This document shows, in pieces, positions 2,674 to 60,790 of a stretch of DNA of 64,000 bases. Position 1 is the stretch's first letter, and each line of letters opens with the position of its first letter. The position numbers and the translations under genes are program-made. Below the pieces are notes generated by a model. That model did no database searches. It was given only the letters and a program-made list of their open reading frames with translations, and was not told where the DNA came from. Origin of the DNA: Bacillota bacterium (GTDB lineage: Bacteria; Bacillota; UBA994; UBA5500); NCBI GenBank assembly GCA_029781045.1, contig JAKOXL010000001.1, forward strand, positions 8,084 to 72,083, in the 5' to 3' direction.

Positions 2674-4122
2674 CTATACTGTAGTCTGCCGCCAGTCCCG
2701 TGGGCTTAGGAGAGCAACCATGGTAAAGAGCTCCAGCCTGCCCATGAGCATGAACAGCGAGAACAATAGCTTGCTGGCACTGCTATAGAAAGAGAAATTT
2801 TGTGCCGGACCTACTAAACGCAAGCCGGGGCCCACGTTGCTCAACGTGGTAATAACGCTGGTCAGGGCCGTTTCCAGATCCACTCCTTCTAAGGAGATAA
2901 CGATGGTGCCAAGCGTTAAGAGTAGCAGATATAGAACCAGAAAACTAGTGATGCTGATGAGAGTATCATCAGACACCACCTTTTTGTCAACCTTTACGGG
3001 CACATAAGCACGGGGATGAAAGATCTTGGCCACTTCCCGCTTAATCAGCTTAGACAGCGAGAGCACGCGGATGACTTTAATACCACCTGCTGTAGACCCC
3101 GCACTGCCGCCAATCAACATGAGCAGAACCAATATCCCTTTGCTAAACGCCGGCCACAAGTCAAAGTCAACAGTGGAATAACCAGTGGTCGTAATAATAG
3201 AGCCAACTTGAAAAAAGGCATCCTTAAGGGCGAGGCCAAAATGCTCATAAGCGCCAGCGATATTTAGACCAATGAGAACTGTGGCCACAGTTATGATACC
3301 TAGATACAAGCGAAACTCCTCGTTATTGATAAGCTGCTTCCACTTTCCTCTGGCGGCATCCACATATAGAGAGAAGTTGGCACCGCAGATAACCATAAAG
3401 ACGCCAACTACCAGCTGCAAGTAAATGCTATTGAAGGCGCCCATGCTTTTGTTGCGAGAAGAAAAGCCTCCCGTGCCAACAGATCCGAAGGTATGCACCA
3501 GCGAATCAAAAAGGCTCATTCCCCCTAGGCATAACAAAACGACCTGCACCAGAGTAATAATGCTATAGGTAACATACAAGACTTTGGCCGTGTCTTTTAT
3601 TCTAGGCGTAATCTTGCCAGCCACCGGCCCTGTAGTTTCGGCCTTATACAGCTGAAATCCGCCAACTCCCAGAGTAGGTAGTAGCGCCACCGTAAAAACA
3701 AGAATGCCCATTCCGCCCATCCAGTGGGTAAAAGAGCGCCAGAAAACTATCCCCCGCGGTAATACTTCCACATCTTTGAGGGCCGTAGCTCCAGTGGTAG
3801 TGAAACCAGAAACGGTCTCAAAAATGGCGTCGGCTATGGTAGGAACGCTATCAGAGAGAATAAAGGGCAAGGCGCCGAATAGCGACACCAGTAACCAGCC
3901 GCAAGCCACAATAGCCAGCCCCTCATGCGCCCTGATCTTCTGGGAGCCTGGAGAAAACCGGCTGAGCAGCCAGCCAATACCGCCAGTTATTGCAATACTC
4001 CAGAAAAATGCAGTAGTGTCATGCTGCTGATAATACAGGGCTATGAACAGCGATGGGAGCATAGATGCGGCTTCAAGCCTTAATAAATCCCCCAAAACCT
4101 TTGCTACTATTCCGTAGTTCAT
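2674..4122 (-). CDS. trkH: TrkH/KtrB family potassium uptake membrane subunit
   Basis: 482-aa polytopic membrane protein with Trk-type repeated M1-P-M2 pore motifs (GFTTTGAT, TTTGYST). Adjacent to trkA. Confidence 0.8.
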   Translation of the reverse strand: MNYGIVAKVLGDLLRLEAASMLPSLFIALYYQQHDTTAFFWSIAITGGIGWLLSRFSPGSQKIRAHEGLAIVACGWLLVSLFGALPFILSDSVPTIADAIFETVSGFTTTGATALKDVEVLPRGIVFWRSFTHWMGGMGILVFTVALLPTLGVGGFQLYKAETTGPVAGKITPRIKDTAKVLYVTYSIITLVQVVLLCLGGMSLFDSLVHTFGSVGTGGFSSRNKSMGAFNSIYLQLVVGVFMVICGANFSLYVDAARGKWKQLINNEEFRLYLGIITVATVLIGLNIAGAYEHFGLALKDAFFQVGSIITTTGYSTVDFDLWPAFSKGILVLLMLIGGSAGSTAGGIKVIRVLSLSKLIKREVAKIFHPRAYVPVKVDKKVVSDDTLISITSFLVLYLLLLTLGTIVISLEGVDLETALTSVITTLSNVGPGLRLVGPAQNFSFYSSASKLLFSLFMLMGRLELFTMVALLSPRDWRQTTV

Positions 4123-5479
4123 GCCGCACGCCTCCTCTACGGCTCGGTTTCATAAAGACATCAAGGGCTTCCACATCTTTGGTCAAGCAGAAAATGATGA
4201 GCCTGTCTAAAGGGTTAATGACTGTGGAACCATTGGGAATGATCACCTGTCCGCCATGGACGATGGCGCCAATAATAATACCCTTCGGAAGCCCCAGCTC
4301 AGCCAGAGACTTGCCAATCACGGCTGGATTATCACCCACGATAAGTTCCGTCACTTCAGCCTCTCCTCCGAGCAAAAGAGAAACCGAGACAACCCGTCCA
4401 CCACGGATAAACCTCAGAATGTGACTAGCTGTAATATTTGTTGGGTTTAAAGCCACATCCACGCCCAGCTTGTCAATTACCTGCACATAGTTGGGACGAC
4501 TAATCTTAGCAATTGTCTTACCCACGCCGGCCTGCTTGGCCAATAGGCACATTAGGAGGTTCTGCTCATCAAAGCCGCTGGCACCAACGAAGGCATCCAT
4601 AGACTGCAGGTCTTCTTCCTCCAGCAAGTTAATGTCGGTGCCATCTCCGTGGATTATGAGAGCATCGTCCAGGTGCTCCGCCAAATACTCGCAGCGGGCC
4701 TTGTCTTGCTCCACGATGGTAACAGCCACGTTGGCTAGGCGCAGTTGTCGGGCCAGATATAGACCTACCTTGCCCCCGCCAAAAATCATGACCTTCTTTA
4801 CCCGCTTCTTGCTATTGGAAAGACCTAAGCGCTCACTCAGTTGGCTTATTCTCTTGCTCTCTCCCATTACATGGACAATGTCATTCTCTAGCAACTCGGT
4901 ATGACCATGGGGAATGATCATTTCCCCGTCGCGAGAGACAGCCACAATGAGTAGGTCTTCTAAACCCAAATCCTTTAGTTGCTTACCTACAAAGCCCTCC
5001 ACTTGACTGACGTTGAAGTCGATCATGGACACTCTGCCTTTAGCAAAATCCTCTGAGTACACAGTGTAGCTGCGGGACAGATAGCGAGATATCTCATTGG
5101 CAGTTGCCAGGTCAGGGTTGACTATATGATCTATACCCATTTCAGCCTTAATAAACCTGAGCTGCTTCGTATATTCGGGGTTGCGGATACGCGCGATCGT
5201 ACGCTTGCAACCCAGTTTCTTGGCGAGGCTACAGATGAGGACGTTAGTTTCGTCGCTACCAGTACAGGCAGTTAATAGGTCATAAGTCTCTATATTTAGC
5301 TCTTTCAACACTTCTAATTCAATGCCATTGGCGTTAACTGTCAACACATCTAGATGATCATTTACACGTTCAATGACTCTCGCATTGGTATCTACCAAAG
5401 TGACATCCACATTGGTATTTAATAAGGATTCGGCCAGTTTGAGCCCCAGTTTCCCGGCTCCAACGACCATGACTTTCAT
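4073..5479 (-). CDS. trkA: Trk system potassium uptake protein TrkA (two NAD-binding plus two TrkA-C domains)
   Basis: Two GxGxxG Rossmann motifs (VVGAGKLG, IFGGGKVG). Start chosen at MKVMVVGAG with a GGAAGGAG RBS; the ORF track start at 5500 lies inside the RBS. Confidence 0.8.
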   Translation of the reverse strand: MKVMVVGAGKLGLKLAESLLNTNVDVTLVDTNARVIERVNDHLDVLTVNANGIELEVLKELNIETYDLLTACTGSDETNVLICSLAKKLGCKRTIARIRNPEYTKQLRFIKAEMGIDHIVNPDLATANEISRYLSRSYTVYSEDFAKGRVSMIDFNVSQVEGFVGKQLKDLGLEDLLIVAVSRDGEMIIPHGHTELLENDIVHVMGESKRISQLSERLGLSNSKKRVKKVMIFGGGKVGLYLARQLRLANVAVTIVEQDKARCEYLAEHLDDALIIHGDGTDINLLEEEDLQSMDAFVGASGFDEQNLLMCLLAKQAGVGKTIAKISRPNYVQVIDKLGVDVALNPTNITASHILRFIRGGRVVSVSLLLGGEAEVTELIVGDNPAVIGKSLAELGLPKGIIIGAIVHGGQVIIPNGSTVINPLDRLIIFCLTKDVEALDVFMKPSRRGGVRHELRNSSKGFGGFIKA

Positions 5480-5631
5480 TCTAACATCTCCTTCCCGCAT
5501 TATGCGGTGTGCATCTATGCTAATAATAATCTGCGAAGATGTCTACCTTGTCAACTACACAAATAGTGCATATTCAAAGGCCATAGAAAATAGAGGGCTA
5601 CCGCCCGCCTAAGGCGGCAGCCCGTTTGCAT

Positions 5632-6618
5632 CTATTTGTAAACAATATCACGGCTTAATGAATGTACTTGTTGCACCCACACTTTCCCCTGGGTATAGGT
5701 CAGTTCGCTGCCATCATCTAGTAGGTATCTAAAGTGGGCTTCTGGCTTATCCTTATGCCAGGTACCGCTCAGTAACTTCCCGTCCCGCAAGAACAAAGCT
5801 TCCCCTTGCCCGATGATATTGATCTCACTCTGAATACCGTCTACCGGTACCTCCACCGTCTTAACCGGTGCTTCAATGATGATAATGTTATGGGCACGAA
5901 TGGCTTCCTGCTCCGCCGTCAGATGGGCCGCACCATTTAGCATTCGGTTATAGCACTGGCTTTCCTCATCATAAACCCAAGAAACCTCGTATTTGGAACT
6001 ATATCTAATATGCAGCTCCTCCACATCCTGGGCTTCGGGCCATTCACCAGTAGGCAGCGCAGGTAGACCATGGGGTTGATAACCGCGTTTGCTGGCTAAT
6101 GCTAACACCGCTTCGCTGGTGGTAAAGGTGGCATGGGGGCTCTTGCGCTGCCGATCCACAAAGAAGGTGGACCCCGCATTAGTAATGGCACATATGCTCT
6201 TAATGCCTAAGGGTTTGCGCAACTCCATGGCATCCATATTGCCGCCCACATGCACCAAAGGTAGATCATAGGGCTTGGCCACCTGCAGGTAATAATAACG
6301 GATGCTGCGGATGGGGCCTACACGCACCGGATTTTGCCAATAAAAGGCGGCCAGAAACCGGGTAATGCCCGTTTCACAGACGAACTCGTAGACAATATCC
6401 GCTTTATCCAAACCGTATTGGGGGCGGGCCCCACTATGATTATCAATCATTGCCATAAAGGCCGCAGCCAGTTCCGGCGTGGGCTCGGGCTCAACGGGTG
6501 TAACAATAGGGTCTGTTGTCGGCCCATCACTGGGCTCCGGTGCATTGACGGGGCTACAACTTGCCATAATAAGCGTAGCCACCAGTATCAACAACAAGAA
6601 AGAAGAACGTTTCAACAT
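5632..6618 (-). CDS. DUF3048 (YerB-like) lipoprotein
   Basis: Signal peptide plus lipobox (LIMASCSP) and a Pro/Thr-rich linker. The similarity to the DUF3048 family is recalled from memory, not computed. AAGGAGGG RBS. Confidence 0.45.
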   Translation of the reverse strand: MLKRSSFLLLILVATLIMASCSPVNAPEPSDGPTTDPIVTPVEPEPTPELAAAFMAMIDNHSGARPQYGLDKADIVYEFVCETGITRFLAAFYWQNPVRVGPIRSIRYYYLQVAKPYDLPLVHVGGNMDAMELRKPLGIKSICAITNAGSTFFVDRQRKSPHATFTTSEAVLALASKRGYQPHGLPALPTGEWPEAQDVEELHIRYSSKYEVSWVYDEESQCYNRMLNGAAHLTAEQEAIRAHNIIIIEAPVKTVEVPVDGIQSEINIIGQGEALFLRDGKLLSGTWHKDKPEAHFRYLLDDGSELTYTQGKVWVQQVHSLSRDIVYK

Positions 6619-9295: not shown

Positions 9296-10699
9296 CTAGC
9301 GCTGCCAATCAAGCCACTCTTGGGTGTACTGCCATTGCCCTCTTTCTGTAGCGCGCGGTTCCCTACCCAAAATAACTCCCGTCTCCGCATCAAAATAGGC
9401 GTAGTCTACCCCCGGCATATTCGCTAAAGGAATGGCATAGGCCAACCTTTCCTCATAACCTCGCCCATCTACAACCGTGAGATGGGGCGTTTCATTCACA
9501 ACAAGGGCTGGGTCTAAGCTATCGATTATATCATCGGCGCTGAGGGAGGCTGCGAAGTTCAGTGGAAGGGGATACTTATCGTAATATAGATCACATTGCA
9601 GCCTAATGGCCGTAGCCATACCGCCGTCAGCGAACTGAGAACAGTAGGACCAAAGCTGGCGACTTTGTAAGGGCACATTCTGTCGCAGCACTACAAACTC
9701 CATACTATAAGAAGTCGCGTCCTGGTGGTAACGGTAGGGGATAATCTCCTCACCCTCCGTTTGGCCCCAGGCCAAGGCCAGAGTCCGAGATAACTGGGCT
9801 AGAAGGTCTAAATCGGGCCTAGGTAGAGAGGCCTCTACTTCCACCACATGCCCTCCAATTTCACTAACCAACACAGTCAAATCCACAGCTGGGGACCGAA
9901 TTGCGAAATCAACTCGCCACAAGTTCCCGTCAGTTTTCCTGCCTCTGTGCACCTTAATCTTTGGCTCTTCCTTGGCCACCAAGTCGGCGTTTTGCAGGAA
10001 CTCCTGCGCCCGTGCCAGCGCCTCAGCTTCGGTGATTCTGGCTTCGCCACTATACCATAGTCCCGGCCAGCTCTGTGGTGGTTTCGCCCGCCCCCGCCGA
10101 TGGGCTTGATAACCCTCATCCTGTTCCCCCGCCTCTTGTAACGCCATTTGCTCGAGCCAGCTATCAAAGGCTTCTTGCACCAGCGGGGTATCCTTCACCT
10201 GTTGCCAGTCGCGACCATAAACCAAGTCCAAGAGAGCCTCTGTCCGCTCTTTGGTGGCAAGAGCCCATTGGCGCAGCTCATGCAGAGATGCTCGCGTTCC
10301 GTGGGGCAGGATACCCTGTAATTGGCTGACATAGGCAAGATAGTCGATAATTGGTCCCCAAGGGTGATGAAGCATCGTATTAAGCATGTAATCATTGCGC
10401 CACGGCGCTGTGAATGGTGCTACAGCCAGTTGGCCGTAGGCTCTCTGTGCCGCAGTTACGGCACCCTGCAGTGCTTCGCTTCTCATAACCTCTTCTGGGC
10501 CCAGTAGGACCTGGGTGAGCTGCTGATCCATGGTTGTTAGCCAGCCCGACTGCTCACGGAGCCAGCGGGCTAAGGATTCCCTCTGGGTGTTTTCTATACG
10601 AAGATAGTATTGATGCTTCTGGCGAAAGCCCCATCCGACTAAGACCACAGCCAACAAGACCAAACCCACCAAACACCACCGTTGCCAGCGTTTGCGCAA
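9296..10699 (-). CDS. membrane-anchored YpeB-like protein with C-terminal PepSY-like repeats
   Basis: N-terminal TM segment. GWGFRQKHQ...ENTQRE resembles the B. subtilis YpeB N-terminus (GYWGYKEHQEK...ENNYQRAF). The C-terminus has Y-x-DAETG-x-I PepSY-like motifs. No sleB is adjacent. Confidence 0.45.
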   Translation of the reverse strand: MRKRWQRWCLVGLVLLAVVLVGWGFRQKHQYYLRIENTQRESLARWLREQSGWLTTMDQQLTQVLLGPEEVMRSEALQGAVTAAQRAYGQLAVAPFTAPWRNDYMLNTMLHHPWGPIIDYLAYVSQLQGILPHGTRASLHELRQWALATKERTEALLDLVYGRDWQQVKDTPLVQEAFDSWLEQMALQEAGEQDEGYQAHRRGRAKPPQSWPGLWYSGEARITEAEALARAQEFLQNADLVAKEEPKIKVHRGRKTDGNLWRVDFAIRSPAVDLTVLVSEIGGHVVEVEASLPRPDLDLLAQLSRTLALAWGQTEGEEIIPYRYHQDATSYSMEFVVLRQNVPLQSRQLWSYCSQFADGGMATAIRLQCDLYYDKYPLPLNFAASLSADDIIDSLDPALVVNETPHLTVVDGRGYEERLAYAIPLANMPGVDYAYFDAETGVILGREPRATERGQWQYTQEWLDWQR

Positions 10700-10812
10700 C
10701 CTTCTCCCTCCATGCTATTTTACCGATCTCTATTAGCCATTCTATGTCTCCTGCAAAAAAGCGTGTCGCCACCGAGTGGCGACACGCCTCTTTGCTCCGA
10801 TTCAAGAGCTAC

Positions 10813-12060
10813 TTAAAGTATGGACTCGCTAACCCCGGCAATGCCGGCCATCATTGTGGCCAGAAGGAAGATGATCTGCGGCCCCTTGTAGGCATTGGTA
10901 GAGTCCCACCATTCTTTGGTGGTATGCACCATGCCCGCGTTGCCACCACCGCCAACACAGACGGCTGGAATGCCCTTGGCAATGGGCGGATTGGCGTTGG
11001 TGTTACCTCCGTGCCCCAGTGTGGGCTCCATACCCATGTCTTTAATCAAGGCATAGGTGGCCTGCACTATCGGAGCGTCTGCCGGTTGGGTGCCGGCCTT
11101 TACGTCCACATAGGTTTCAATGTCGTAGGTGATGGTGTCCATCCCCCAGCGGGCGGTTTCTTCGGCGCAGGCCTCTTTGATGCACTGCAGAACTTTCCCG
11201 TACAGGATATCGAGCTCCACTTGGCAGTCGGAGCGCATGTTCATCTTGATGGTGGCTTTGGGAACGATGGCATGTATAGCCGCATCGTTACCAGCGTGGA
11301 AGTTGCTGACGGCGTAAGTAGTCTTGGGCGATACGGGCACTTCCAGATCAGCAATTTTGGCTACCGCCCGGGCCGCCGCATGTAGCGGATTGGCCACCTT
11401 GCCAAAGGCCCCATAGGCGTGGCCACCAATGCCGTAGAAGTTGACGGCAAAGGTCTTCATTCCCGTTGCCTCGTAGGTAATGGTGTCAATGCTGGCGCCA
11501 TCGATATTGATACACCCGATGATATTGTCATGGTCAGCAAGAAAATCCTTCATGCCACCAAAACCACCCATGCCCTCCTCACGGGATGTGCCCATGAAGA
11601 TGAGGTCATGCTCGGTTTCAATCTGGCTGTGGTTGAAGGCGCGTAGAACCGATAGTACGGCCGCCAAACCTCTAGTGTCATCGGCCATGCCAGGGCAGTG
11701 GTAAACCCCATCCCTTGGTTCTGGGCGACCGGCGACTGTGCCTTTAGGGAAGACCGTGTCCAGATGGCCCTCTATGACAATGGCCTTACCTGTGTTACCT
11801 TTGCCCCGCCGCACGCCGAAGGCATTGCCATGGCGATCCACCTGTACGTCCTCCAGACCTAAGGCCGCCAGCTTATCGGCAAAAGCCCTAGCTCTATCCC
11901 ACTCCTCAAAGGTGGGCGCCTCAATGACAACCAGATCCAGCTGATCCTCCAAGGTGTTCTGCTCATCAGCCTGAATGAACTCCATCCCCCGCTGTACCGC
12001 CTCTAAACCTTTTAGCCGCTCATACGTCTTGGCAATCCTCTCCGACACTACGTACTCCAT
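10813..12060 (-). CDS. M20 family metallopeptidase (ArgE/DapE/CPG2-like)
   Basis: HxD...GHLDTVFP metal-binding motifs and an M20 dimerisation-domain pattern. Start at MEYVVS with an AGGGAGG RBS (the track ORF is longer). Confidence 0.75.
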   Translation of the reverse strand: MEYVVSERIAKTYERLKGLEAVQRGMEFIQADEQNTLEDQLDLVVIEAPTFEEWDRARAFADKLAALGLEDVQVDRHGNAFGVRRGKGNTGKAIVIEGHLDTVFPKGTVAGRPEPRDGVYHCPGMADDTRGLAAVLSVLRAFNHSQIETEHDLIFMGTSREEGMGGFGGMKDFLADHDNIIGCINIDGASIDTITYEATGMKTFAVNFYGIGGHAYGAFGKVANPLHAAARAVAKIADLEVPVSPKTTYAVSNFHAGNDAAIHAIVPKATIKMNMRSDCQVELDILYGKVLQCIKEACAEETARWGMDTITYDIETYVDVKAGTQPADAPIVQATYALIKDMGMEPTLGHGGNTNANPPIAKGIPAVCVGGGGNAGMVHTTKEWWDSTNAYKGPQIIFLLATMMAGIAGVSESIL

Positions 12061-12157
12061 AGTAAGGCCTCCCTCTTGATTCTTATCACTTGGAACGGGT
12101 TTCCCCTTGTGTTTTATTTCTGTAGCCGTATCATTATCCCTGCTGGAAAAGATAAAA

Positions 12158-12181
12158 AGGGCTGTCGCAAAACAGCCCCTT
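12158..12181 (-). terminator. terminator hairpin (GGGCTGTCGCAAAACAGCCC) between the CBM-repeat gene and the M20 peptidase gene
   Basis: aagggctgtcgcaaaacagccccttat. A T-run follows on the minus strand (ctttttatctttt). Confidence 0.5.
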
Positions 12182-12192
12182 ATCATAGCAAA

Positions 12193-13611
12193 TTAGGTCA
12201 AGCGGCAGAAAATCACGTTATCTATATCCAATTCTGGGGTGGTTTCAGCATCATCGTCAGGGCAGCCGAATTGCACACGCGCGGCCACGGCGCCTCGAGG
12301 AGCAGGCTCCGTTACGCCAGCGTAAACCAACCACTTAATGGTGGTGATGCCGTTGCTCTCATGATTACTCTGTAAGATGGCACTTAACCCCAGACCGATT
12401 TCGTTACCGTTTCTATCCAGCCAGATAACTTGGGCCGTGAGATTACTCAAACCGTTACGGGCTCGGAAAGCAAAGCTCAACAGGAAGCAGTGATTCTCAG
12501 CGTAGCGGAGGGGAACATCTTGAAATAGGAAAGAGCCATCGTCCATTTCCGCATATTGGGTACCTTCATAGGAATCGTCTGCCGATGGAGTATCCACATC
12601 ATCGAAGGTCCAGGAGGTCAAACCGTTTTCAAAACCGGGGTTGAGAATTAAGTTAGTAGAGGCTACCCGGATGAAGATGACCTGATCAATATGCAGTGGT
12701 TCGGCAGTGAAGAAGATGATTCTGGCACGCACTGCTCCACGAGGGGCAGGACTGGTGACCCCAAGATAGGTCAGATATCCACCTTGCGTCAGCAGGGTGA
12801 GATTAGGAACAATGAGTTGTAAACCGGGTTCGCCGATAACCGTATCATTCCGATCCAACCATAATACTTGCACCGTTACAGCCGCCAAGGCAGGCGAGTG
12901 GTATCCAACACCTAGCAGATAGGTGGAGCCCCGAGGATGACGGGAGATGTCCACATCCTGCTGCAGCACCGCATTATCGGCATTGGCTACCGCTGCCCCT
13001 ATACCCTCAAGCCGGAAGAAGTAGCTGGGGGCAAAGGTCTCTGTTGTCCAAGAAGTCAAGCCTATTTCAAAACCCGGGTTGTTTACCAGGTTGCCACTGA
13101 GAACAGGGGCCAAAACTATCTGATCCAGTTGAATGAAGCTGGCTTCATTGCCTTCCTGTTTGGTAAATACCAAGCGAGCAAAGGCCGCCTGTGCCGGGGA
13201 AGGGTCCACAATATGGAAATGAGTCACCCGTTCGCTGTCCAGATCAGTCACCGCCTTAGGGTTAATGAAGAGACGGGCACCGTAACCAATAATCCGTTGG
13301 AAACTATCTAGCCAAATTACCTCCACAATCAGGCGCGGTGGGGGGACCAGCTCGGTCACCTGGGAACTTCTGAGGTTGAAGCTTAGGAGCAGAGGGTAGC
13401 CTCTTACCCCAAACAGAGGAATGTCCTGCCAAAGGGCAGCCTGTTCCGGCCCCATTTCCACCAGAAGGTTCCCTTCATAGGTGGGATGGCTGATGATTTC
13501 CACGTCACCAAAGATCTGCCACTCGGCAAAGTCCTGCTTGAAGCTTGGATTCTGGACCAGGTTTAGACCGGGGACGGGCCTACGCTCAACCCTGTATCTC
13601 CGTCTGGCCAT
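12193..13611 (-). CDS. protein made of three tandem CBM4/9-like (carbohydrate-binding, jelly-roll) domains, no signal peptide
   Basis: Three ~150-aa repeats each open with N(L/P)xFExGLTSW-type motifs (LVQNPSFKQDFAEW, LVNNPGFEIGLTSW, LILNPGFENGLTSW). Start at MARRR with AAGGAGGG 7 nt upstream. Confidence 0.55.
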   Translation of the reverse strand: MARRRYRVERRPVPGLNLVQNPSFKQDFAEWQIFGDVEIISHPTYEGNLLVEMGPEQAALWQDIPLFGVRGYPLLLSFNLRSSQVTELVPPPRLIVEVIWLDSFQRIIGYGARLFINPKAVTDLDSERVTHFHIVDPSPAQAAFARLVFTKQEGNEASFIQLDQIVLAPVLSGNLVNNPGFEIGLTSWTTETFAPSYFFRLEGIGAAVANADNAVLQQDVDISRHPRGSTYLLGVGYHSPALAAVTVQVLWLDRNDTVIGEPGLQLIVPNLTLLTQGGYLTYLGVTSPAPRGAVRARIIFFTAEPLHIDQVIFIRVASTNLILNPGFENGLTSWTFDDVDTPSADDSYEGTQYAEMDDGSFLFQDVPLRYAENHCFLLSFAFRARNGLSNLTAQVIWLDRNGNEIGLGLSAILQSNHESNGITTIKWLVYAGVTEPAPRGAVAARVQFGCPDDDAETTPELDIDNVIFCRLT

Positions 13612-13840
13612 GTCTTTTCCCTCCTTTCTCAAGTAGCTGCTTTCCCAATATTGTATGCAGTATAGAATGGTGGTGTGTCATTGTGGCTACACCAACAAGC
13701 TGGCAAGACAAGCAGCAAACCTTTGTACTCAAAGATAGACAAGTGGCATTGCGGAAAGCGGCGTGGTGAACGCCTATGGTATAATAGTTCGCGACCCAAA
13801 TGGCGAGCATTGCTCTAACAGAGGATGAAAAGACTGGGGG

Positions 13841-14773
13841 ATGAGCATGAGGAAGAAGTGGCAGGGTGAGGCGATGTTGCTGCTGGCCGCACTTATTTGG
13901 GGGGCCGCTTTTGTAGCCCAAAGAACAGGCATGGAGTATGTGGGGCCATTTACCTTTAACGGTATCCGCACTCTGCTGGGTGCACTGGCTCTGGTGCCGG
14001 TAATTGTGCTGATGAATAGGCAGCAGAAGGGACAGGGCGAGTCAAGCCCCGCGCAGATGGCCAGAGAAAAAAGGAACCTGCTGATCGGCGGTTCCTTGTG
14101 CGGAATCATATTGTTCGTGGCCAGTTCCTTGCAGCAGTACGGCCTAGTCTATACCACTGCTGGCAAGGCGGGCTTTATTACGGCCTTGTATATAGTCTTT
14201 GTTCCCCTGTGTGGGCTCTTTCTGAAGCGAAAGATCCGCCCCTTGCTGTGGCTGTGTGTAGGCTTGGCTACTCTAGGGCTCTATTTACTCTCGGTGCAGG
14301 AAGGGTTTGCTATTAACAGTGGTGACCTGCTGGTCTTGGCCTCGGCCTTCGCCTTTACGGCCCACATATTGGTCATTGACCATTTTTCTCCCCAAACCGA
14401 CGGGGTAAAGATGTCGTGCTTGCAGTTTCTTGTCTGCGGAGTTCTCTCGCTGCCCTTCATGTTAGCTTTTGAGACCGTCAACTGGTCAGACATCAAGGCC
14501 TGTTGGCTGCCCATTGCCTATGCGGGCATCTTATCCTGTGGAGTGGCCTATACGCTGCAAATAATCGCGCAGAAGCGAACGGAACCCACCATTGCTTCTC
14601 TCCTACTATCTCTGGAGTCGGCCTTTGCCCTGCTGGCGGGCATGGTTATTCTGCACGAACAGGTTTCCTCGCGGGAGGCCGTCGGCTGTCTCATCATGTT
14701 CGCCGCCATTATCTTAGCCCAACTACCCGAAAAGAGGCGTCGGGTAACCCGTGGAACTAGTACCGAATTCTAA
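13841..14773 (+). CDS. DMT superfamily (EamA-like) transporter
   Basis: Ten predicted TM helices with two EamA-like halves. Divergent from the CBM-repeat gene. Confidence 0.75.
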   Translation: MSMRKKWQGEAMLLLAALIWGAAFVAQRTGMEYVGPFTFNGIRTLLGALALVPVIVLMNRQQKGQGESSPAQMAREKRNLLIGGSLCGIILFVASSLQQYGLVYTTAGKAGFITALYIVFVPLCGLFLKRKIRPLLWLCVGLATLGLYLLSVQEGFAINSGDLLVLASAFAFTAHILVIDHFSPQTDGVKMSCLQFLVCGVLSLPFMLAFETVNWSDIKACWLPIAYAGILSCGVAYTLQIIAQKRTEPTIASLLLSLESAFALLAGMVILHEQVSSREAVGCLIMFAAIILAQLPEKRRRVTRGTSTEF

Positions 14774-16209: not shown

Positions 16210-17619
16210 TTAAGCCTTTTGCCAGATACGAGTGCCAACACTTACCTTGTTGCAGGTACCATTGTAGGCATGAAACTCCAATACTAATCCCGGCGGAAGA
16301 ACTTCGCCAGATCCGGATGAAGTGAAGACACTCCCACCACAGAACAAAAGTGGTTCGCAGTGCTTATCATTTTGGGCAACCAATACACCATTGGCGTTTA
16401 GCGCAATGCGAAGCTCTTCGTCGGCCTCCTGAGAGCTATAGACCCCAGTATAAATCGCCGGATTCTCAGGCTTACCGGACCAAACTTCATGTACCGAGTC
16501 GTGCTTTTGTTCTAGCGGCAATCCTAGCCTCATATTGAGGGCCGCATTGGTCAAAGGCGAACAATCTATGTCGCTGAGATTTGTCAAGACTGTAACAGCA
16601 AAGGCGCCATCCTTAATAAAACATCCGATAGCAGAGACTCCGGTTAACCCACCGTCATGCTCGCAAATAGCCACATCTTCAAACAAGCGCTTATACAATC
16701 CGTAGCAGTAAGTACCCCTTTTTGTCTCTGCGAAAGCCCTGCCAACAAGCCGTTCTACACAGCTTTCAGGGAAGATCCGTTTGCCGCCGTAAACCCCCCG
16801 GCAAGACAACGCCATGAAATACTTGTTCATATCCATTGCCGTTGACTTGATCCAGCCACAGCCTCGGTAAGGCGGGGCGTTATCCCAGTTGTTTGTACAA
16901 TGGATAACGCCATTCTTATCTTTAGTGAAGAGGCTTGTAACATTACCTTTCGGCAATAGAGCGTTCAGATCAAAACTGGTGCGTTCCATTCCTAAGGGTT
17001 GGAAGATACGCCGGTCTGCATAGGTTTCTAACGGCTCTCCTGCCGCTTTATCTATTACACTCGACAGCAGTGCGTAACCTTCGTTTAAGTAGCTCATATA
17101 TCGCCCTGGAGGTCCGAGAACGCGGAAGTTATCCCCTTGCGCAATGAAGGAGATGATGTCGTCTATATGCTCCACCTTGGTCGTGGACTCGGCCTTATAT
17201 CGTTCCTGTATCTCTGCCCTCCAGGGCTCCGTGGGAGTATGCCAGGCCAAAGACCAATCTAAGGTTGGTAGCGGTGGGATCCCGGCAGTGTGATTGGCCA
17301 AATGGTGCACCAACACTGCTTCCTGGGGAGTTCCTGGAATGCGGAAGTCAGGTAAGTACTTCGCTACCGGATCGTCAAAACTGAGTTTACCTTCATGCTC
17401 CAACAAGGCAGCCGCCAGACAAGTAATGGATTTGCTCAATGACGCTATACCAAAAATAGTGTCTGCCGTTGCCTTTTCTTTTCCATCACAGTCCCGGTAG
17501 CCGAATCCCCGGCTATACAGCACTCCGCTATCGTCGCTGACACAAATTGCTGCACCCGGCACCTCTTGCCGCTTAAGCTCCTGAGCAACATGCAAATCAA
17601 GCTTGGCCCAATCGTACAT
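16210..17619 (-). CDS. serine hydrolase, beta-lactamase / S12 D-peptidase family (D-aminopeptidase/D-stereospecific peptidase-like)
   Basis: SxxK active-site motif (ASLSKS). ~470 aa with a C-terminal extra domain as in S12 D-aminopeptidases. Paralog of the 18504-19919 gene. Confidence 0.75.
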   Translation of the reverse strand: MYDWAKLDLHVAQELKRQEVPGAAICVSDDSGVLYSRGFGYRDCDGKEKATADTIFGIASLSKSITCLAAALLEHEGKLSFDDPVAKYLPDFRIPGTPQEAVLVHHLANHTAGIPPLPTLDWSLAWHTPTEPWRAEIQERYKAESTTKVEHIDDIISFIAQGDNFRVLGPPGRYMSYLNEGYALLSSVIDKAAGEPLETYADRRIFQPLGMERTSFDLNALLPKGNVTSLFTKDKNGVIHCTNNWDNAPPYRGCGWIKSTAMDMNKYFMALSCRGVYGGKRIFPESCVERLVGRAFAETKRGTYCYGLYKRLFEDVAICEHDGGLTGVSAIGCFIKDGAFAVTVLTNLSDIDCSPLTNAALNMRLGLPLEQKHDSVHEVWSGKPENPAIYTGVYSSQEADEELRIALNANGVLVAQNDKHCEPLLFCGGSVFTSSGSGEVLPPGLVLEFHAYNGTCNKVSVGTRIWQKA

Positions 17620-17671
17620 TATCTTTCCTCCGCTCCACAGTCTCTACCGCGACCAACCAGGAAGCGCAGGC

Positions 17672-18469
17672 CTACACTATCCACTTTAATGTTCGCAACA
17701 CCTCATAGTAGCACGGGCTCTCAAAGGTTACTATGTTGGCCGTCTCCCTTTTGACTCCTGGGAAATATGAGACCTTTTCGGCATAGGTGTGCTCTTTGAA
17801 GAAAATCTCGACCTTAAAGTGTTCGGGCAGTTTGATCTTCGCTGCTTGCAAGTCTTGCCGTACGGCCTTTTCTGCCGCGTTACGGATATTCTCAACCACC
17901 AGATCCGGTGAATAGTTTCTTGTTAGGCTACCACTTCCGTCTTTGGTTGGCACCGTCAACAGACTGGGATGTAGTTCGTTTTCGTCCTCACAGAGCATTT
18001 TGTCTCCAGAGAGCAGTACAGTAGGCACTCCTTCCAAAGCACAAGCCCAGCTATAAATCATGAACTCGGAAGCAAAACGACCGTTAATCTTGATCCAAGC
18101 AGGCCTGCCAGTGAGCGTGTGAGACAGAGGATTACCCATCTTGCCAGCGGCCGAATGATAACCAACAAACATGGCACAGTCAAAGGTTTTATCTACTCCT
18201 TCAACCATGAGGTAAGGATGGCCCGACGTGTTACGCAGTAGTACTACATTTTTTGGCATTTGGGCCGGGTCTAGGTTTAGCCCGGAACCATGGGCATCTT
18301 TCACATAGACTTCAGTTGCCCCGCCGGCAAAGGCACCTTCACAGGCCGCCAATACTTCCCGCGTCATTTGCTTAACATGGGGAGCTGCCATCGGTTCCTG
18401 CGTAAAGGTTTCCTTCCATTCCGTCGTACTGGCGATACCTTCAATATCCGCGCTGATAAATACCTTCAT
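17672..18469 (-). CDS. dppA: D-aminopeptidase DppA (peptidase M55)
   Basis: MKVFISADIEGIA N-terminus and the M55 family pattern. 265 aa. Confidence 0.8.
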   Translation of the reverse strand: MKVFISADIEGIASTTEWKETFTQEPMAAPHVKQMTREVLAACEGAFAGGATEVYVKDAHGSGLNLDPAQMPKNVVLLRNTSGHPYLMVEGVDKTFDCAMFVGYHSAAGKMGNPLSHTLTGRPAWIKINGRFASEFMIYSWACALEGVPTVLLSGDKMLCEDENELHPSLLTVPTKDGSGSLTRNYSPDLVVENIRNAAEKAVRQDLQAAKIKLPEHFKVEIFFKEHTYAEKVSYFPGVKRETANIVTFESPCYYEVLRTLKWIV

Positions 18470-18503
18470 GTGGTCTTATCCTCCCTTTCAAGCTAGCGGC
18501 TAG

Positions 18504-19919
18504 CTAAAGCCTTTGGTACATTCTATTGCCCGTCTGCATAGCCCAAGCTTTATCATTGCGAATGTAGAATCTTATCAGCATGCAATCCCGTAATGGGTTG
18601 CCACCTTCTCGGGGAGCCAGGAAGTAATTCTCTCCACAGTAGACTAGGGGCCGCTTTTCTCCTTCAGCAAAAGTGAGCACCAATCCGCCCTTCTCTCTCG
18701 CCACCTTATAGGGATAAGCATAAATTGGCATACCATGCTCCCGCGCCCCATAGAAACCTTCATAGATCCAAGGTTCCTGCGGCGGCCTCTGGGAGATTAC
18801 GAAGTTATGAGTATGCTCTTCAGGGTTATGACCTTGGGCAATATTGAAAGCTCCCATGAGAATGCGTACAGCGTCCACGTTACCCACGTTGGTCAAAACT
18901 GTACCCGCAATCCCCCGATCTTTGAAGAATGCCCCTGCGGAGGAGACTCCTTTTAAGCCCCCGGCATGGGAAAACAGCACTTCCCCGCGACAACGGACTT
19001 TCGCCAGACCATAGGCATAGACACTGGTCTTCAGAGTGGGGAAATCATTGCCCAGCAGCCTATCCACTACGCTCTCAGGCAAGATACGTCGGCCCTCAAA
19101 TACTCCATTTTGCGATAGCATCTTGTAGTACTTATACATATCGTGGCTCGAAGAAATAATCCAGCCACAACCACGGTAGGGAGGAGCCATTTGCCAATTG
19201 TCCGAAGCGGTGACTTCTCCATTTTCCTCTTTAGTAAAGACCTGGGTTACGTTATCGAAATCTTTAAGACGGTGATAGCCTAAGGCTGTACGGGTCATAC
19301 CTAGAGGCTGAAAGACCTTTTTTTCCATATACTCTTCAATGCTCATATCAGCTGCCTGGTCCACAATGGACGAGAGTATGGCGTAACAATCGTTGGAGTA
19401 GCTGGTATACTCCCCAGGTTGCCCCAACACTTGGTAATCGCCTTCCATTATATAGTCTATAATGTCTTCTACTGTATCGACTTTGATTAGACTATCAAGC
19501 TGGTCTACCGTCCGTTTCTCTCCCGGATCGCGTTCGGTATGCCTAGCCATACAGTGGGTGAGGGTAGGTAACAACGGCAACCCGGTGGTATGACTCAAGA
19601 GATGCTTAATAAGCACCGCATCCTTGGGTGTTCCCGGTATCTTAAAACGGGGGAAGAAGCGGGTAACCGGATCATCCATGCTCAACTTGCCTTCATGCTC
19701 CAGCAGCGCAATACAGGTGGCCGTCACCGCCTTCGATAGAGATGCAACGCCCATTATTGTATCGCCATCCACCGGCTTTTCCCTTTTTCCATCTCTATAA
19801 CCGTAGGCCTTATCGTAGACTATCCCGTTTCCGTCGGAAAAGGTGATCGATAAGCCTGGGATGTTCTGCCTTTCCATTTCCTTGATGATAAAGCTGTCCA
19901 TTAAGTTCGCATTAAACAT
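18504..19919 (-). CDS. serine hydrolase, beta-lactamase / S12 D-peptidase family
   Basis: ASLSKAV SxxK motif; paralogous to the 16210-17619 gene. Start at MFNANL with an AGGGAGGAT RBS. Confidence 0.75.
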   Translation of the reverse strand: MFNANLMDSFIIKEMERQNIPGLSITFSDGNGIVYDKAYGYRDGKREKPVDGDTIMGVASLSKAVTATCIALLEHEGKLSMDDPVTRFFPRFKIPGTPKDAVLIKHLLSHTTGLPLLPTLTHCMARHTERDPGEKRTVDQLDSLIKVDTVEDIIDYIMEGDYQVLGQPGEYTSYSNDCYAILSSIVDQAADMSIEEYMEKKVFQPLGMTRTALGYHRLKDFDNVTQVFTKEENGEVTASDNWQMAPPYRGCGWIISSSHDMYKYYKMLSQNGVFEGRRILPESVVDRLLGNDFPTLKTSVYAYGLAKVRCRGEVLFSHAGGLKGVSSAGAFFKDRGIAGTVLTNVGNVDAVRILMGAFNIAQGHNPEEHTHNFVISQRPPQEPWIYEGFYGAREHGMPIYAYPYKVAREKGGLVLTFAEGEKRPLVYCGENYFLAPREGGNPLRDCMLIRFYIRNDKAWAMQTGNRMYQRL

Positions 19920-19947
19920 ACATATCCTCCCTACATTCAACTTCAGG

Positions 19948-21069
19948 CTACCGAGAGCTAAGAATACTCATTATCGCGGAGGCTAATGTGTCCACTGAAC
20001 CAGCATTGTTAGCTAATACAACCACTCCAGCCTTTGACTGCGGGCAGAAAATAGTGGTAGAACAGTATCCTCCGACCAATCCGTTATGGTCGTAGATCTT
20101 TCCGTAGGTGGTGTTGCCGATATGCCAACCTAGACCCACAGTCCTTCCGCCGGAGAAATGGGTTTGCTGGGCCAAAGCCATAGCTGCAGACAAACGCTCA
20201 TCCACCGACATAGCACCTAAATTGGCCGCCAAGAAGCGGATCATGTCGCGGGCCGTACTCTTAATACCGCCTGCCGCCTGCAAGGCGTCGAAGTCCCATT
20301 CCTTTCCAGGCGTGCCACTGGCCAGATGGGGTCCAGCCTTGCGAGCCTGCAGAGTCTCATCGGGAAAAACTGTGGTAGACGACATGCCCAACTTATCACA
20401 GATCAGCTCTTTCAGCATGGCGTCATAGGGCTTTCCGTAGGCATCAGACAAACACTCCCCTAGGACCCCCATACCTAAGTTGGAATACTCATAGCGGGTC
20501 CCGGGGGCCCAGCGTAGCGCATTTAGCCGCATGAACTCATTCATATCCTCACGGCTAAAGTCGGCAAAGGGGTTCATGGGATTGAGTACAACCGGATCAC
20601 GGGGCAAGGCGGAGCTATGGGTGGCCAGATGCTTCAAGGTCATCTCCACACCATCATACTCACCGGCTTTACACCCGGGAAAAAACTCTTTCACCGGTGT
20701 ATCCAGAGAAACTATTCCCTGCAACGATAGATCGGCCAGTATTGTGCCAGTGAAGGTTTTAGTCAGCGAAGCAATTTCAAACAGCGTGTTCTCATCAATC
20801 GGCTTGCCGTCTTTATGGGTACGGCCGTAGTTAAAGTAGGCGATCTTTCCATCTTTAACAACCGCTACTGCCATGCCCATAAAACCCTTGGAGTCAAAAT
20901 AGGCTTGGCATTCCCGCCCAATCTTCTCGCGCAGTTCCTTGTCTTCCAGAAAGGGTAACTCGCCCGCCTTTGCGCCCCCTCCAGACAACGAGGAACAGGC
21001 CGCGATCATGGCAGACATGACTATTACAGCCACCAGACCTAACCATTGCCTGCACCTTCTTGTAGACAT
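19948..21069 (-). CDS. beta-lactamase family (class C-like) lipoprotein
   Basis: Signal peptide plus lipobox (MIAACSS). ASLTKTF SxxK motif. 373 aa. Confidence 0.75.
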   Translation of the reverse strand: MSTRRCRQWLGLVAVIVMSAMIAACSSLSGGGAKAGELPFLEDKELREKIGRECQAYFDSKGFMGMAVAVVKDGKIAYFNYGRTHKDGKPIDENTLFEIASLTKTFTGTILADLSLQGIVSLDTPVKEFFPGCKAGEYDGVEMTLKHLATHSSALPRDPVVLNPMNPFADFSREDMNEFMRLNALRWAPGTRYEYSNLGMGVLGECLSDAYGKPYDAMLKELICDKLGMSSTTVFPDETLQARKAGPHLASGTPGKEWDFDALQAAGGIKSTARDMIRFLAANLGAMSVDERLSAAMALAQQTHFSGGRTVGLGWHIGNTTYGKIYDHNGLVGGYCSTTIFCPQSKAGVVVLANNAGSVDTLASAIMSILSSR

Positions 21070-21099: not shown

Positions 21100-23193
21100 C
21101 TAAACCAAGAGACACGATACCCAATGGCCCGGCTCCACTTCCCGCAGTTTAGGCTCCTCTTCCCCACAGCGTTTTTGACAGACTGGGCAGCGGGTATGGA
21201 AGGCACAACCAGAGGGTGGATTTACTGGGCTGGGCATATCGCCTTCTAACCTGATGCGCTCACCCTTGTCACCGCTTATCTTAGGCACCGAAGACAGGAG
21301 TGCCTTTGTATAAGGATGCAAAGGATTGCGGTAAACATCCTTCTTGTCGCCGAGTTCAACGATTTTTCCCAAGTACATGACAGCCACCCGATCCGAGATA
21401 TGGTGCACAACCGCCAGATCATGGGAAACGAAAACGAGCGACAGTTCATAGTGCTCTTGTATCCGTCGCAAGAGGTTAATAATCTGCGCCTGAATTGACA
21501 CGTCCAGGGCCGAAACCGGCTCATCACACACAATTAGCTTGGGGTTGACCGATAAGGCCCGAGCGATACCAATGCGTTGCCGCTGGCCACCCGAGAACTC
21601 ATGGGGGTAACGGTTAAAATAGGAACGTTCCAAGCCGCATTCGTCCATCAACTCTAAAACCCGCAACAGGATCTCCTTTTCCGAGGTCAGAGTGCGCTGA
21701 ATACGGATTGGTTCGGCAATAATCTCACCCACCGTCATGCGGGGATCCAGTGAGGCATAGGGATCTTGGAAAATGATCTGCATAACCTTGCGGTCAAACT
21801 CGGGGTTGCGATGTCCGGTGGAGAGGAAATCGGCAGCCGAGCTGTGGAAGAATCCGTACATAAATGTGTCGGCGTTCGGGAAGCTAGGACCCCAGTCGCC
21901 TAAGAAGGACTGCACGTTACCGGTGGTGCGCTTGTCAAACCAAACGCCGCTTTCCACCTGATCGATCTTGGCCGTCATATTGCAGGCGGCAAAGTCCTGT
22001 TGCATGATCTGGTAAACCTGATAGAAGGTGCCGGTACCCACACAAGTCATCTCAAACTCGATACCATCCGGATAACCAGCTTCAGCTAGTAAAGCTTTAG
22101 CCTTCTCTGGGTTGTACTCAAAACCTGGTAGATTGGGATCATAGCCAGGAACACCTTCCGGTAGAATGGTGTTAACAGCCGGCCACAGACCCTTGAAGAA
22201 CTCTCTGGAAATCTTGTCATTGTCAAAGGCATAGGCAACAGCTTCGCGCACCTTGGGGTTATCGAAGGGCTTTTTGCCATTGTTCATGACGAAGAAGACT
22301 TGCGAGAGGGAGTTCTGAATCTTTACGTTATCTGCGAAGTCTGGGTTAGACAGATACTGTTGAGCCATGGTCAAGCCAAGACCACAATAGTCGATGTTAC
22401 CTGCCTCAAACTCTAGATATCTGGTGTTCTCATCCATGTTGTAGAACTCGAAACCATCCACATTGGGCTTTAGGGTACGTCCATTGTAGACGTTATGGTT
22501 ATAGTTGGGGTTAGGCTTCATAACGATCTTGGTCTCTGGATCGAAGGACTCTAAGATAAAGGGACCCGTACCAACAAGTGTATCAATACCCCAACGATCG
22601 CCGGCTGCTTCGCGGGCGTGCTTAGGCACAATACCTAAGTATTCGTTGGCCAGAGCATGAACAAAGGCAGCATAGGGGCTCTCTAGCGTGATGGAGAATT
22701 TGTACTTGTCAATGACCTTGAAGCCTGCCAAAGAATCGGCCTTGCCATCCATCATTTCTTTGGCGCCCAAGATGAAGTCAATCATCCAAGTGTTGAGACA
22801 GTTGGTGGCTGGATTGAAGAAGGTATTGAAGGTATACTCTACGTCTTCACTGGTGAGCTCAACACCATCATGGAAGAGAATGCCTTCTTTAAGTTCAAAG
22901 GTGTAGGTCAAGCCGTCTTCACTAACAGTTGGGAAATCCTTCACGAGCAGTGGGTACATTTCGTACGTAAAAGGCCGCTGGCCAATAAGGGGTTCACAGA
23001 TAAAGCTGTAGGGGGTGGCCACTCGTGGATAGGTGGATTTCATCGCATCGATATGGCCATCCGTGCCGTAGTCTCCACCTAACCGCATAATCTTGTCGCC
23101 GCTAGGCTGAGGCTCAGGGGTTGATGGGGTACATCCGACAAGCGCACTGATGAGCATAAGTGAAACTAACAGGACTGCCAAAAACCGCTTCAT
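21100..23193 (-). CDS. chimeric ORF: family-5 peptide/nickel substrate-binding lipoprotein fused in-frame to the C-terminal half of an OppF/DppF ATPase lacking Walker A; probable internal deletion remnant of an opp/dpp operon
   Basis: N-terminal lipoprotein signal (LVGCTPS) and an SBP_bac_5-like body reaching the ...NPEFDRKV motif. The ORF then continues directly into [25 protein letters not shown]..., with the ABC signature FSGGQRQR, Walker B LIVCDEP and the C-terminal oligopeptide-ATPase extension. No GxxGxGKS/T is present. Start at MKRFL with an AAGGAGGAT RBS. Confidence 0.6.
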
Positions 23194-23221
23194 ACGTATC
23201 CTCCTTTGTTTTTTGTGGCAA

Positions 23222-23247
23222 TAAACGAAACATCTCATCGATGTTTA
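23222..23247. promoter_or_regulatory. inverted repeat AAACATC-N5-GATGTTT; candidate TetR operator just upstream of the SBP::OppF ORF
   Basis: Perfect 7-nt inverted repeat with a 5-nt spacer, 30-50 bp upstream of the 23193 start codon, in the region divergent from the TetR gene. Confidence 0.25.
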
Positions 23248-41158: not shown

Positions 41159-42265
41159 TTAGGCACGGGAAAGCACGCTAATGCTGCCGTTCTTGCTAGC
41201 AGCCATCACCTGCGTTTTGATGGCCGCCTGCTGCCAGTTTTCCGTAGATGCCTTATAGTGTTGCTTATCCTCTACACTAGCCACAAGGGCTGGCAAATCA
41301 ACACTTACACGGCCGCTTCGTGTCTGCAGGTCCAGCTGGTACCCCCTGGCGTCTCCCGTAGCCAGCTCAACTTGCACCGAACCATTGGTGGTAGTTAGAG
41401 TAATGGTGCCATCGCTGGTGGGTTCCAGAACCCCGCGAATCGAGCCATTCTTGCTAGTTGCTAAGAGGGAACCAACTTGAGCCGTAACCGTTATGCTGCC
41501 GTTCTTGGTCTCCAATTGCCAATCATCATGGGATTGCCCTCGTACCTTGATGGAGCCGTTCTTGGTCACAGCCCTACCGGCACCACAAACCTCTTCCACG
41601 GAAATAGAACCGTTCTTGCTCACTAGATCCATCTGGGTCAGCAACCGACGAGGGATGGCAATGTCAAAGGAGACGGAGCCGCGGATTTCTTCGCTCACTC
41701 GCCAGGCCAACTGCAGTTCCCCATCTTTCTGTTCCTCGTTTTGCAGCAAATATTGCTCCACCAACTGCCGGGCCTCTGCCTCACTATCGGCTTGAACTCG
41801 AAAACGTAACTGCACCGCGATATGTTCATCATCACTGGCCCGCAACCGTAGGTTACCGTTCTTGCTACTAATGTCCAAGTGTAATCTCTCTACCGTATCG
41901 GGAATGGCAACGGTCCGCTGTTCTTCCCAGGTGTAATGGGTGCCCCAGTGGCCGCCCAAAAACCCCTGCAGCCAGTCGGCTAGGCTCTGCCCCTCTCCCA
42001 ACTCCTGACTAATAGCCGATCTCACCTCTTGTAGGGCATCCTCTACCTCACTGGTGATTTCCTCTCCGATCTCCCGCAGTTCCTGCCCCAGTTCTTCCAA
42101 CAATGATGGGCTTTCCCTCATCACCGGCACCGGGATAGGTCCAACCTCTGGAACCTCCGGGGGCACCGACGTCCCTTCCAGTGCCTTGAGCAGGGCCAGG
42201 GCCTCTTCCGAGTTGATACGCCCCTGCTCCAACAGTTTTAGAATCCGCATTCTCGCTTCCGACAT
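41159..42265 (-). CDS. DUF4097 (YvlB-like putative adhesin / beta-helical repeat) protein with N-terminal helical domain
   Basis: N-terminal MSEARMRILKLLEQGRINSEEALALLKA motif. The C-terminus has repeated KNGSI(x)V beta-strand repeats. Paralog of the upstream gene. Confidence 0.6.
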   Translation of the reverse strand: MSEARMRILKLLEQGRINSEEALALLKALEGTSVPPEVPEVGPIPVPVMRESPSLLEELGQELREIGEEITSEVEDALQEVRSAISQELGEGQSLADWLQGFLGGHWGTHYTWEEQRTVAIPDTVERLHLDISSKNGNLRLRASDDEHIAVQLRFRVQADSEAEARQLVEQYLLQNEEQKDGELQLAWRVSEEIRGSVSFDIAIPRRLLTQMDLVSKNGSISVEEVCGAGRAVTKNGSIKVRGQSHDDWQLETKNGSITVTAQVGSLLATSKNGSIRGVLEPTSDGTITLTTTNGSVQVELATGDARGYQLDLQTRSGRVSVDLPALVASVEDKQHYKASTENWQQAAIKTQVMAASKNGSISVLSRA

Positions 42266-42282
42266 CCGGTCTTACCTCCCCA

Positions 42283-57975: not shown

Positions 57976-57992
57976 TGTCTTGCATCCCTCCG

Positions 57993-60770: not shown

Positions 60771-60790
60771 TTAAACTCCCTCCTCATACC

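Follow-up and report, generated by a model that had tools for sequence, protein, structure and literature searches.

The gene and its protein

We analyzed a 64-kb stretch (64,000 nucleotides) of contig JAKOXL010000001.1 from a Bacillota bacterium, referred to below as the window, and in it a minus-strand gene at 12193-13611 that encodes three related domains in one chain and is a candidate for a protein of the outer spore layers. The reading frame starts with an ATG at 13611 and ends with a TAA at 12193-12195, giving a protein of 472 residues with a mass of 52.2 kDa and an isoelectric point of 4.73. A Shine-Dalgarno (SD) sequence, AAGGAGG, lies on the same strand at 13620-13626, 8 nt 5' of the ATG, and a protein with 100% identity to it (P0001) occurs in public assemblies.

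The chain opens with an arginine-rich tail (residues 1-14, encoded at 13570-13611 on the minus strand; net charge approximately +5) that is predicted to be disordered. Its N-terminal sequence is MARRRYRVERRPVPG (+5), and the predicted local distance difference test (pLDDT) score of the AlphaFold model described below is under 50 at residues 1-10. The first 40 residues contain no hydrophobic segment and reach a Kyte-Doolittle maximum of only 0.19 (15-residue averaging), from which we conclude that the protein has no signal-peptide-like h-region, as judged by hydropathy only and without a dedicated predictor. Scans against Pfam and NCBIfam found no catalytic domain. The basic N-terminus and the lack of both a signal peptide and a catalytic domain had been pointed out in an earlier note made from the bare sequence, and all three observations were borne out.

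Splitting the chain at a recurring NLxxNPxFE motif delimited three repeats of approximately 150 residues. Pairwise BLASTP showed them to be clearly homologous (E=4e-23 and 41% identity between the second and third, 2e-13 between the first and third, 4e-8 between the first and second), so that the tandem triplication noted earlier is correct, as is its repeat-opening motif, found once per repeat as NPSFKQDFAEW, NPGFEIGLTSW and NPGFENGLTSW. All three repeats match the NCBIfam model NF033675 (NTTRR-F1 domain, 155 positions): domain 1 (residues 15-171; 13099-13569, minus strand) at model positions 4-153 with 32.0 bits, domain 2 (residues 172-316; 12664-13098, minus strand) at positions 4-144 with 32.4 bits, and domain 3 (residues 317-472; 12196-12663, minus strand) at positions 3-151 with 54.1 bits. 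The whole protein scores 108.5 bits in three stretches (E=3.3e-31), above the model cut-off of 70 bits. Since no repeat scanned alone passes this cut-off, we regard the repeats as divergent relatives of NF033675 and not as canonical members.

The earlier note had assigned the repeats to CBM_4_9, a family of carbohydrate-binding modules (CBMs). Membership in the Pfam family (PF02018) was rejected. The match scored 21.3 bits, below the gathering threshold of 25.9, and covered 40 residues of one repeat (residues 320-359, profile positions 2-44 of 136); separate scans of domains 1 and 2 gave no match, which confines the sub-threshold hit to domain 3. C1q and TNF families were absent among Pfam and NCBIfam matches up to E=10, and a direct sequence search of the PDB returned marginal matches only (E of 0.085 or above).

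Predicted fold and packing of the three domains

An AlphaFold2 model built from an alignment of 21 family sequences was all-beta, domain 1 included, with a mean pLDDT of 90.5 and a predicted template modeling (pTM) score of 0.90; residues 1-10 alone were disordered. The best of the CBM structural matches was to CBM16 (2zew_A; score 17.1, 2.6 Å over 135 residues), with further matches to CBM61 (16.6), a porphyran-binding CBM (16.5) and CBM4-2 (16.1). The top Foldseek ranks were taken by CBM-like domains of full-length Cry1 and Cry8 protoxins, Vip3, a tandem CBM22 and CBM16. Because these structural matches are CBM jelly rolls, the claim of a CBM-type fold holds despite the failure of the Pfam search, and the predicted fold is a beta-jelly roll of the CBM4/9/16/22 type.

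When the chain was aligned as a whole, it matched engineered single-chain trimers of the C1q/TNF superfamily: single-chain C1q (5hzf_A; 16.4, 297 residues), single-chain adiponectin (4dou_A; 15.5, 283 residues), single-chain Cbln1 (5kca_A; 14.6, 290 residues) and single-chain APRIL-BAFF-BAFF (4zch_B; 13.9, 307 residues), all at a sequence identity of 4-8%. An extended, beads-on-a-string tandem of two CBM22 domains (4xup_A) aligned over 153 residues only. The linkers between the three domains are 4-6 residues long. Together, the single-chain-trimer alignments, the pTM of 0.90 and the short linkers suggest jelly rolls arranged around a pseudo-threefold axis, and the three domains probably form one compact, rigid knob, an intramolecular pseudo-trimer.

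Promoter and transcription unit

An intrinsic terminator on the minus strand (12156-12181; 11-bp stem with 5 GC pairs and a T-rich tail) begins 12 nt past the stop codon. It lies between the gene and the downstream M20 peptidase gene and makes the former a monocistronic unit, separate from its neighbor.

The earlier note had suggested that the 229-nt gap upstream (13612-13840) be checked for sigma-K/sigma-E promoters. No sigma-70-type promoter was found there. A script located the sequence AC-N17-CATACAATA at 13676-13649 on the minus strand, with a sigma-K-type -35 element (AC, 13675-13676) and a -10 element of the type used by mother-cell sigma factors (CATACAATA, 13649-13657) that ends 37 nt before the ATG. 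The AC-N17-CATA motif does not fit what we take to be the consensus sequences for sigma-G, sigma-F, sigma-H or extracytoplasmic function (ECF) sigma factors. In Clostridioides difficile and Bacillus subtilis, the -35 element is AC for sigK and ATA for sigE, with a CATA-type -10 element common to both (PMC3789822), and the exosporium genes bclA, bclB, bxpA, bxpB, cotB and exsY depend on SigK (PMC4750369).

We examined whether the pattern recurs in the family. In a first set of 12 upstream regions, the strict sigK pattern (ending in TA) was present only in the window and in its closest relative (L001), and a relaxed pattern, AC-N16/17-CATAnnnT, was present in six. Mononucleotide shuffles of the 12 regions never gave more than three matches in 5000 trials. 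Because the relaxation was chosen post hoc, the fixed pattern was applied to eight held-out lineages, seven of them at most approximately 60% identical to the loci already used and the eighth a locus fetched earlier but previously unanalyzed (L009). Five of the eight carried the pattern and one more carried a version differing by one base, while the pattern occurred upstream of 6.3% of 158 non-family genes (P=4.8e-5). In the final tally, counted within 150 nt of SD-supported start codons, the exact pattern was found at 12 of 22 family loci and at 6 of 172 control genes (3.5%); when a one-base variant ([CA]ATA) was also allowed, the numbers were 17 of 22 and 16 of 172. At the 12 loci with an exact match, the -10 element always ended 28-50 nt upstream of the SD-supported start. 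A sigma-K-type promoter pattern is thus conserved upstream of divergent homologs.

One could instead suppose that the AC...CATA sequence arises by chance in AT-rich DNA or is the site of another regulator, and that the gene has nothing to do with sporulation and encodes an ordinary CBM-like protein, either cytoplasmic or exported by a non-classical route. The motif is indeed low in information content and matches approximately 3.5-6% of control upstream regions, the genomic context is housekeeping or metabolic, and the host is no more than a likely spore-former. We nevertheless consider this explanation unlikely: the enrichment is large and was obtained out of sample (P of approximately 5e-5), the exact sites are clustered within 28-50 nt of the start codon in lineages whose proteins are only 35-45% identical, and the family is confined to Clostridia and Bacillota.

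Homologs, N-terminal tails and unfused relatives

Among 1.84 billion representative sequences, approximately 20 clusters (at 50% identity) have the full three-domain architecture of approximately 455-530 residues. Below these, scores drop sharply to fragments, stand-alone single-domain proteins of approximately 155-168 residues and large secreted multi-CBM proteins; the large relatives with several matching stretches carry generic names such as 'carbohydrate binding', 'LPXTG' or 'DUF642'. The full-length homologs were found in Clostridia and Bacillota only (Syntrophomonas, Syntrophomonadaceae, Desulfoscipio geothermicus, Clostridium pascui, C. peptidivorans, C. sulfidigenes, Christensenellales and unclassified metagenome-assembled genomes, MAGs), and all are annotated as 'hypothetical protein'. 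A metagenome scan with the full alignment yielded one full-length locus only, a 93% copy of the L005 locus, and a homology search with domain 3 alone gave two matches and was uninformative. Four apparent two-domain proteins (P0037, P0038, P0039 and P0014) were rejected as such, being truncated or mis-started three-domain genes.

By hydropathy, a signal-peptide-like segment is absent from all of the approximately 35 full-length relatives. Their N-terminal tails are of three types. Short Arg/Lys-rich tails with a charge of +5 to +8 (for example MARRRRRMPKPIPC, VRRRRRRIRRVPVC and MPRRRSKRPRPKC) occur in seven lineages, the window included; many relatives have cysteine-rich tails of 20-57 residues with 3-5 Cys; and the third type is minimal (MC..., MLRCN...). 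Directly upstream of the family gene in a Syntrophomonas MAG (L008) is an open reading frame (ORF) of 155 residues (5205-5672) that begins MKRYNDDRCICPKCPKFDKCSRHFYDHGPCPF and is rich in cysteine. AC-N17-CATAnnnT occurs within 260 nt upstream of this ORF, which may encode a coat-like protein.

Paralogs are common, with extra copies at L005 and L009. In Clostridium peptidivorans (L025, 1775-7975), three tandem paralogs of approximately 485 residues are followed directly by a gene pair for an ECF sigma factor and its DUF4179-type anti-sigma factor. Such ECF sigma/anti-sigma pairs also lie near the homolog at L001 (sigma gene directly upstream, same strand), L024 and L004, which raises the question of whether the window protein is an envelope-stress protein controlled by an adjacent sigma/anti-sigma pair. 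We regard this as very unlikely and rejected ECF control since the association is not conserved: an ECF sigma gene is found in the fetched flanks of only 4 of 20 homolog loci and is directly adjacent in two, and the nearest one in the window is approximately 15 kb away. Promoters of the ECF type carry AAC at -35 and CGT at -10; no such pattern was noticed on reading the upstream sequence in the window, although no explicit scan was made. Nor does the window protein have a signal peptide or transmembrane segment.

Relatives in which the domains are not fused were also found. A Fermentithermobacillaceae MAG (L031, 3475-5034) has three adjacent single-domain genes encoding 167, 167 and 168 residues, with 31-42% mutual identity, gaps of 22-23 nt and an SD sequence on each; every one aligns end to end with NF033675, and a one-base promoter variant, AC-N17-AATATTAT, lies upstream of the operon. 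This operon corresponds to the window protein in unfused form and provides support of the gene-fusion (Rosetta-stone) type for the three domains acting together. Stand-alone single-domain relatives score 56-61 bits with NF033675. One of them, in the region 3588-6453 of the Clostridium ganghwense locus L030, has an exact sigK-type motif at -64, which matches the geometry in the window (-65). It is followed after 38 nt by a gene for a 635-residue protein that is built of approximately 14-residue SHAEGxxTxAxG repeats and ends in a Peptidase_G2 intramolecular-chaperone domain (PF11962, E=2e-40). Peptidase_G2 chaperone modules occur at the C-termini of trimeric fibers, and the 635-residue protein looks like a trimeric-fiber protein. 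A Spo0E-like gene is located upstream of the stand-alone gene, in divergent orientation.

The fiber gene in C. ganghwense could also be taken to suggest that the window gene is a receptor-binding or tail-fiber module derived from a phage or prophage. Phage tail proteins with CBM-CenC modules have the same fold, and weak PHROG matches were obtained (phrog_16363, E=5e-7; a minor tail protein, E=4e-3). The viral fold matches are, however, to single domains only (CBM-CenC modules; query-normalized template modeling score, TMq, of approximately 0.25), phage genes are absent around the window gene and all full-length homologs examined, and the window gene is a separate, monocistronic unit equipped with a promoter and a terminator. 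With such weak matches and no phage context, a phage origin was rejected as highly improbable.

Gene neighborhood and host

The genes flanking the window gene were largely as the earlier note had described them. The M20 peptidase (10813-12186, minus strand) and the EamA/DMT (drug/metabolite) transporter (13841-14773) were confirmed. The label 'YpeB-like' for the gene at 9296-10699 (minus strand) was not supported, as the gene has no match in Pfam or NCBIfam. This gene encodes 467 residues with an N-terminal hydrophobic segment. A mother-cell-type promoter-like motif, ACGCTTTTTTGCAGGAGACATAGAAT, lies at 10739-10764, starting 65 nt before its TTG start and directly after a hairpin 3' of the M20 peptidase gene. 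The 467-residue gene may thus be another orphan linked to sporulation. The window and L001 have the M20 peptidase, DUF4153 and DUF3048 genes in common, and a 396-residue gene without a Pfam match occupies the same relative position in L001, after the M20 peptidase gene, and is a probable counterpart by position.

Further along the minus strand, at 16210-21069, are three paralogs of the serine beta-lactamase/DD-peptidase family (PF00144) and an M55 D-aminopeptidase, with the M20 peptidase nearby. Together with an oligopeptide-binding protein at 21100-23238, this arrangement suggests a locus for salvage of D-amino-acid peptides or peptidoglycan fragments. The ORF at 21100-23238 (minus strand, 712 residues) combines an SBP_bac_5 solute-binding domain (residues 93-469), a partial ABC_tran ATPase (residues 478-575, matching just the second half of the profile) and a C-terminal oligo_HPY region, and is either an unusual fusion or the result of a deletion joining two opp/dpp genes. 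At 41159-43374 (minus strand) are two adjoining paralogs that both have a SHOCT-like domain at the N-terminus and, in addition, a DUF4097 'toastrack' domain.

The presence of dnaA, mnmG and mnmE at 56107-63443 indicates that the window adjoins the chromosomal replication origin of an uncultured Bacillota lineage. Close relatives of the DnaA protein are all from MAGs labeled 'Firmicutes/Bacillota bacterium', and among named genera the closest are the endospore-formers Aneurinibacillus, Thermincola, Carboxydocella and Brevibacillus (59-62% identity). The sole sporulation-type marker found in the window is a gene for a PdaB-type sporulation polysaccharide deacetylase (46554-47333, plus strand; TIGR02764, E=2e-65). 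On the basis of this gene and the spore-forming genera nearest by DnaA, the host is likely to be able to sporulate.

A candidate protein of the outer spore layers

The explanation that we favor, with confidence about evenly divided between its being right and wrong, is that the window gene encodes a non-secreted late-sporulation protein, transcribed by sigma-K in the mother cell, that serves as a structural or lectin-like knob on the outer spore layers. Sigma-K RNA polymerase would transcribe the gene late, in the mother cell. The protein would be made in the mother-cell cytoplasm and would therefore need no export signal. From there it would be deposited on the coat, crust or exosporium, with the N-terminal tail as a putative anchor, Arg-rich in the lineage of the window and Cys-rich in most others, that could act electrostatically or via disulfide cross-links. 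The knob itself would be a structural unit or one that binds glycans or other ligands at the surface. The family takes several forms: genes for a single domain, whose products presumably form homotrimers; the three-gene operon, which presumably gives a heterotrimer; and the fused chain of the window. The expression, location and ligand of the window protein are what we infer here. The overall interpretation in the earlier note, which had raised spore coat or exosporium proteins as a possibility, is partly supported, and its CBM_4_9 label is right only in part.

A different fate of a mother-cell product is also conceivable: a soluble lectin or parasporal-type protein that is not part of a spore layer but is released on lysis and acts on the environment or on other cells. 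The promoter evidence applies equally to such a protein, as does the lack of a signal peptide; Cry protoxins, too, lack a signal peptide and are produced during sporulation. The top Foldseek PDB matches were to the CBM-like C-terminal domains of the Cry1Ac, Cry1Ca, Cry1Aa and Cry8Ba protoxins (E of 5e-17 to 8e-15) and to Vip3 domains. These matches are, however, to single domains (TMq of approximately 0.23) and reflect the generic CBM-like fold only; the window protein has no toxin core domain, and cysteine-rich or basic N-terminal tails suit anchoring better than free release. We therefore judge a released lectin to be quite unlikely.

Several points weigh against assignment to the spore layers. 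The compact packing is an AlphaFold prediction, and co-variation among homologous tandem domains can inflate inter-domain confidence; in addition, a probable two-domain relative (P0055) shows that three domains are not universal in the wider family. The relaxed promoter pattern was defined after the first 12 loci had been viewed, a weakness mitigated by the held-out test. The exact pattern is missing at 10 of the 22 loci, five of which also have no one-base variant, and since the -35 element is only two bases and the pattern is short, the motif alone does not exclude sigma-E. The neighborhood is not conserved beyond L001, and no known coat or exosporium genes were found in the loci examined. 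SigK and core spo genes were not found in the 64-kb window, and the PdaB match, at 220 bits, is under the cut-off of 237 bits. The searches gave no homolog in the model spore-formers for which spore proteomes have been published, and a literature search gave no record of expression, localization or binding for family members.

The window protein is not categorically new, because its domain is catalogued in NCBIfam and falls within the known superfamily of CBM-like jelly rolls. In the literature, we found no description of an architecture of three copies in one chain that is predicted to mimic a C1q/TNF-type trimer, of single-gene, three-gene-operon and fused forms in one family, or of the conserved sigma-K-type promoter of this family. 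It is possible, though on balance doubtful, that these features define a new class of spore-surface 'knob', a natural single-chain pseudo-heterotrimer of CBM-like jelly rolls that reproduces the architecture of C1q, TNF and BclA heads. Such a class would have kept its single-gene (homotrimer, once beside a trimeric-fiber gene), operon and fused stages, all expressed from sigma-K-type promoters in little-studied Clostridia.

The outer spore layers govern adhesion, dispersal, germinant access and host interaction, and their composition is known for few model species. If the proposal is right, this sigma-K-promoter-linked family of Clostridia and uncultured Bacillota is a new building block of these layers and a clear example of oligomer-to-fusion evolution in which unfused three-gene and single-gene relatives still exist. 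The NTTRR-F1 domain, which has no functional annotation in NCBIfam, would gain a biological context that can be tested, and cultivable Clostridium species offer the means to test the family. The knob could also serve as a rigid display scaffold for spore-surface engineering.

Comparison with known systems

The NTTRR-F1 family presumably, as its name implies, comprises a single domain located N-terminal to the tandem-repeat region of large proteins. The likeness to this family is that each repeat of the window protein aligns over nearly the whole 155-position model. In the window, by contrast, three copies form the entire protein and the chain ends after domain 3 without a repeat region; a repeat fiber occurs only as a neighboring gene, in C. 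ganghwense. The only paper found to mention the domain reports a protein of approximately 2294 residues in Bacillus velezensis, with no function given (PMC13433461).

Compared with CBM4, CBM9, CBM16, CBM22 and CBM61, the window protein lacks a signal peptide, a glycoside-hydrolase partner and a cell-wall anchor. Its domains are predicted to be tightly packed and not independent modules, and carbohydrate binding is putative. The C-terminal CBM-like domains of Cry1 and Cry8 and domains IV/V of Vip3 from Bacillus thuringiensis gave the best Foldseek E-values (5e-17 to 1e-12), but they match single domains only and the toxin core has no equivalent in the window protein.

The closest functional analogues are the C-terminal domain of BclA and BxpB of the Bacillus cereus group, jelly-roll trimers of the exosporium (PMC10470788) whose synthesis in the mother cell depends on SigK (PMC4750369). 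These proteins and the C1q/TNF heads are jelly rolls of approximately 135-150 residues that form a tight globular trimer, and the window chain superposes on the single-chain C1q/TNF trimers. It has no detectable sequence relationship to any of them, and its individual domains are more CBM-like. The trimer predicted for the window protein also differs in being intramolecular, in consisting of three diverged copies and in having no collagen-like stalk.

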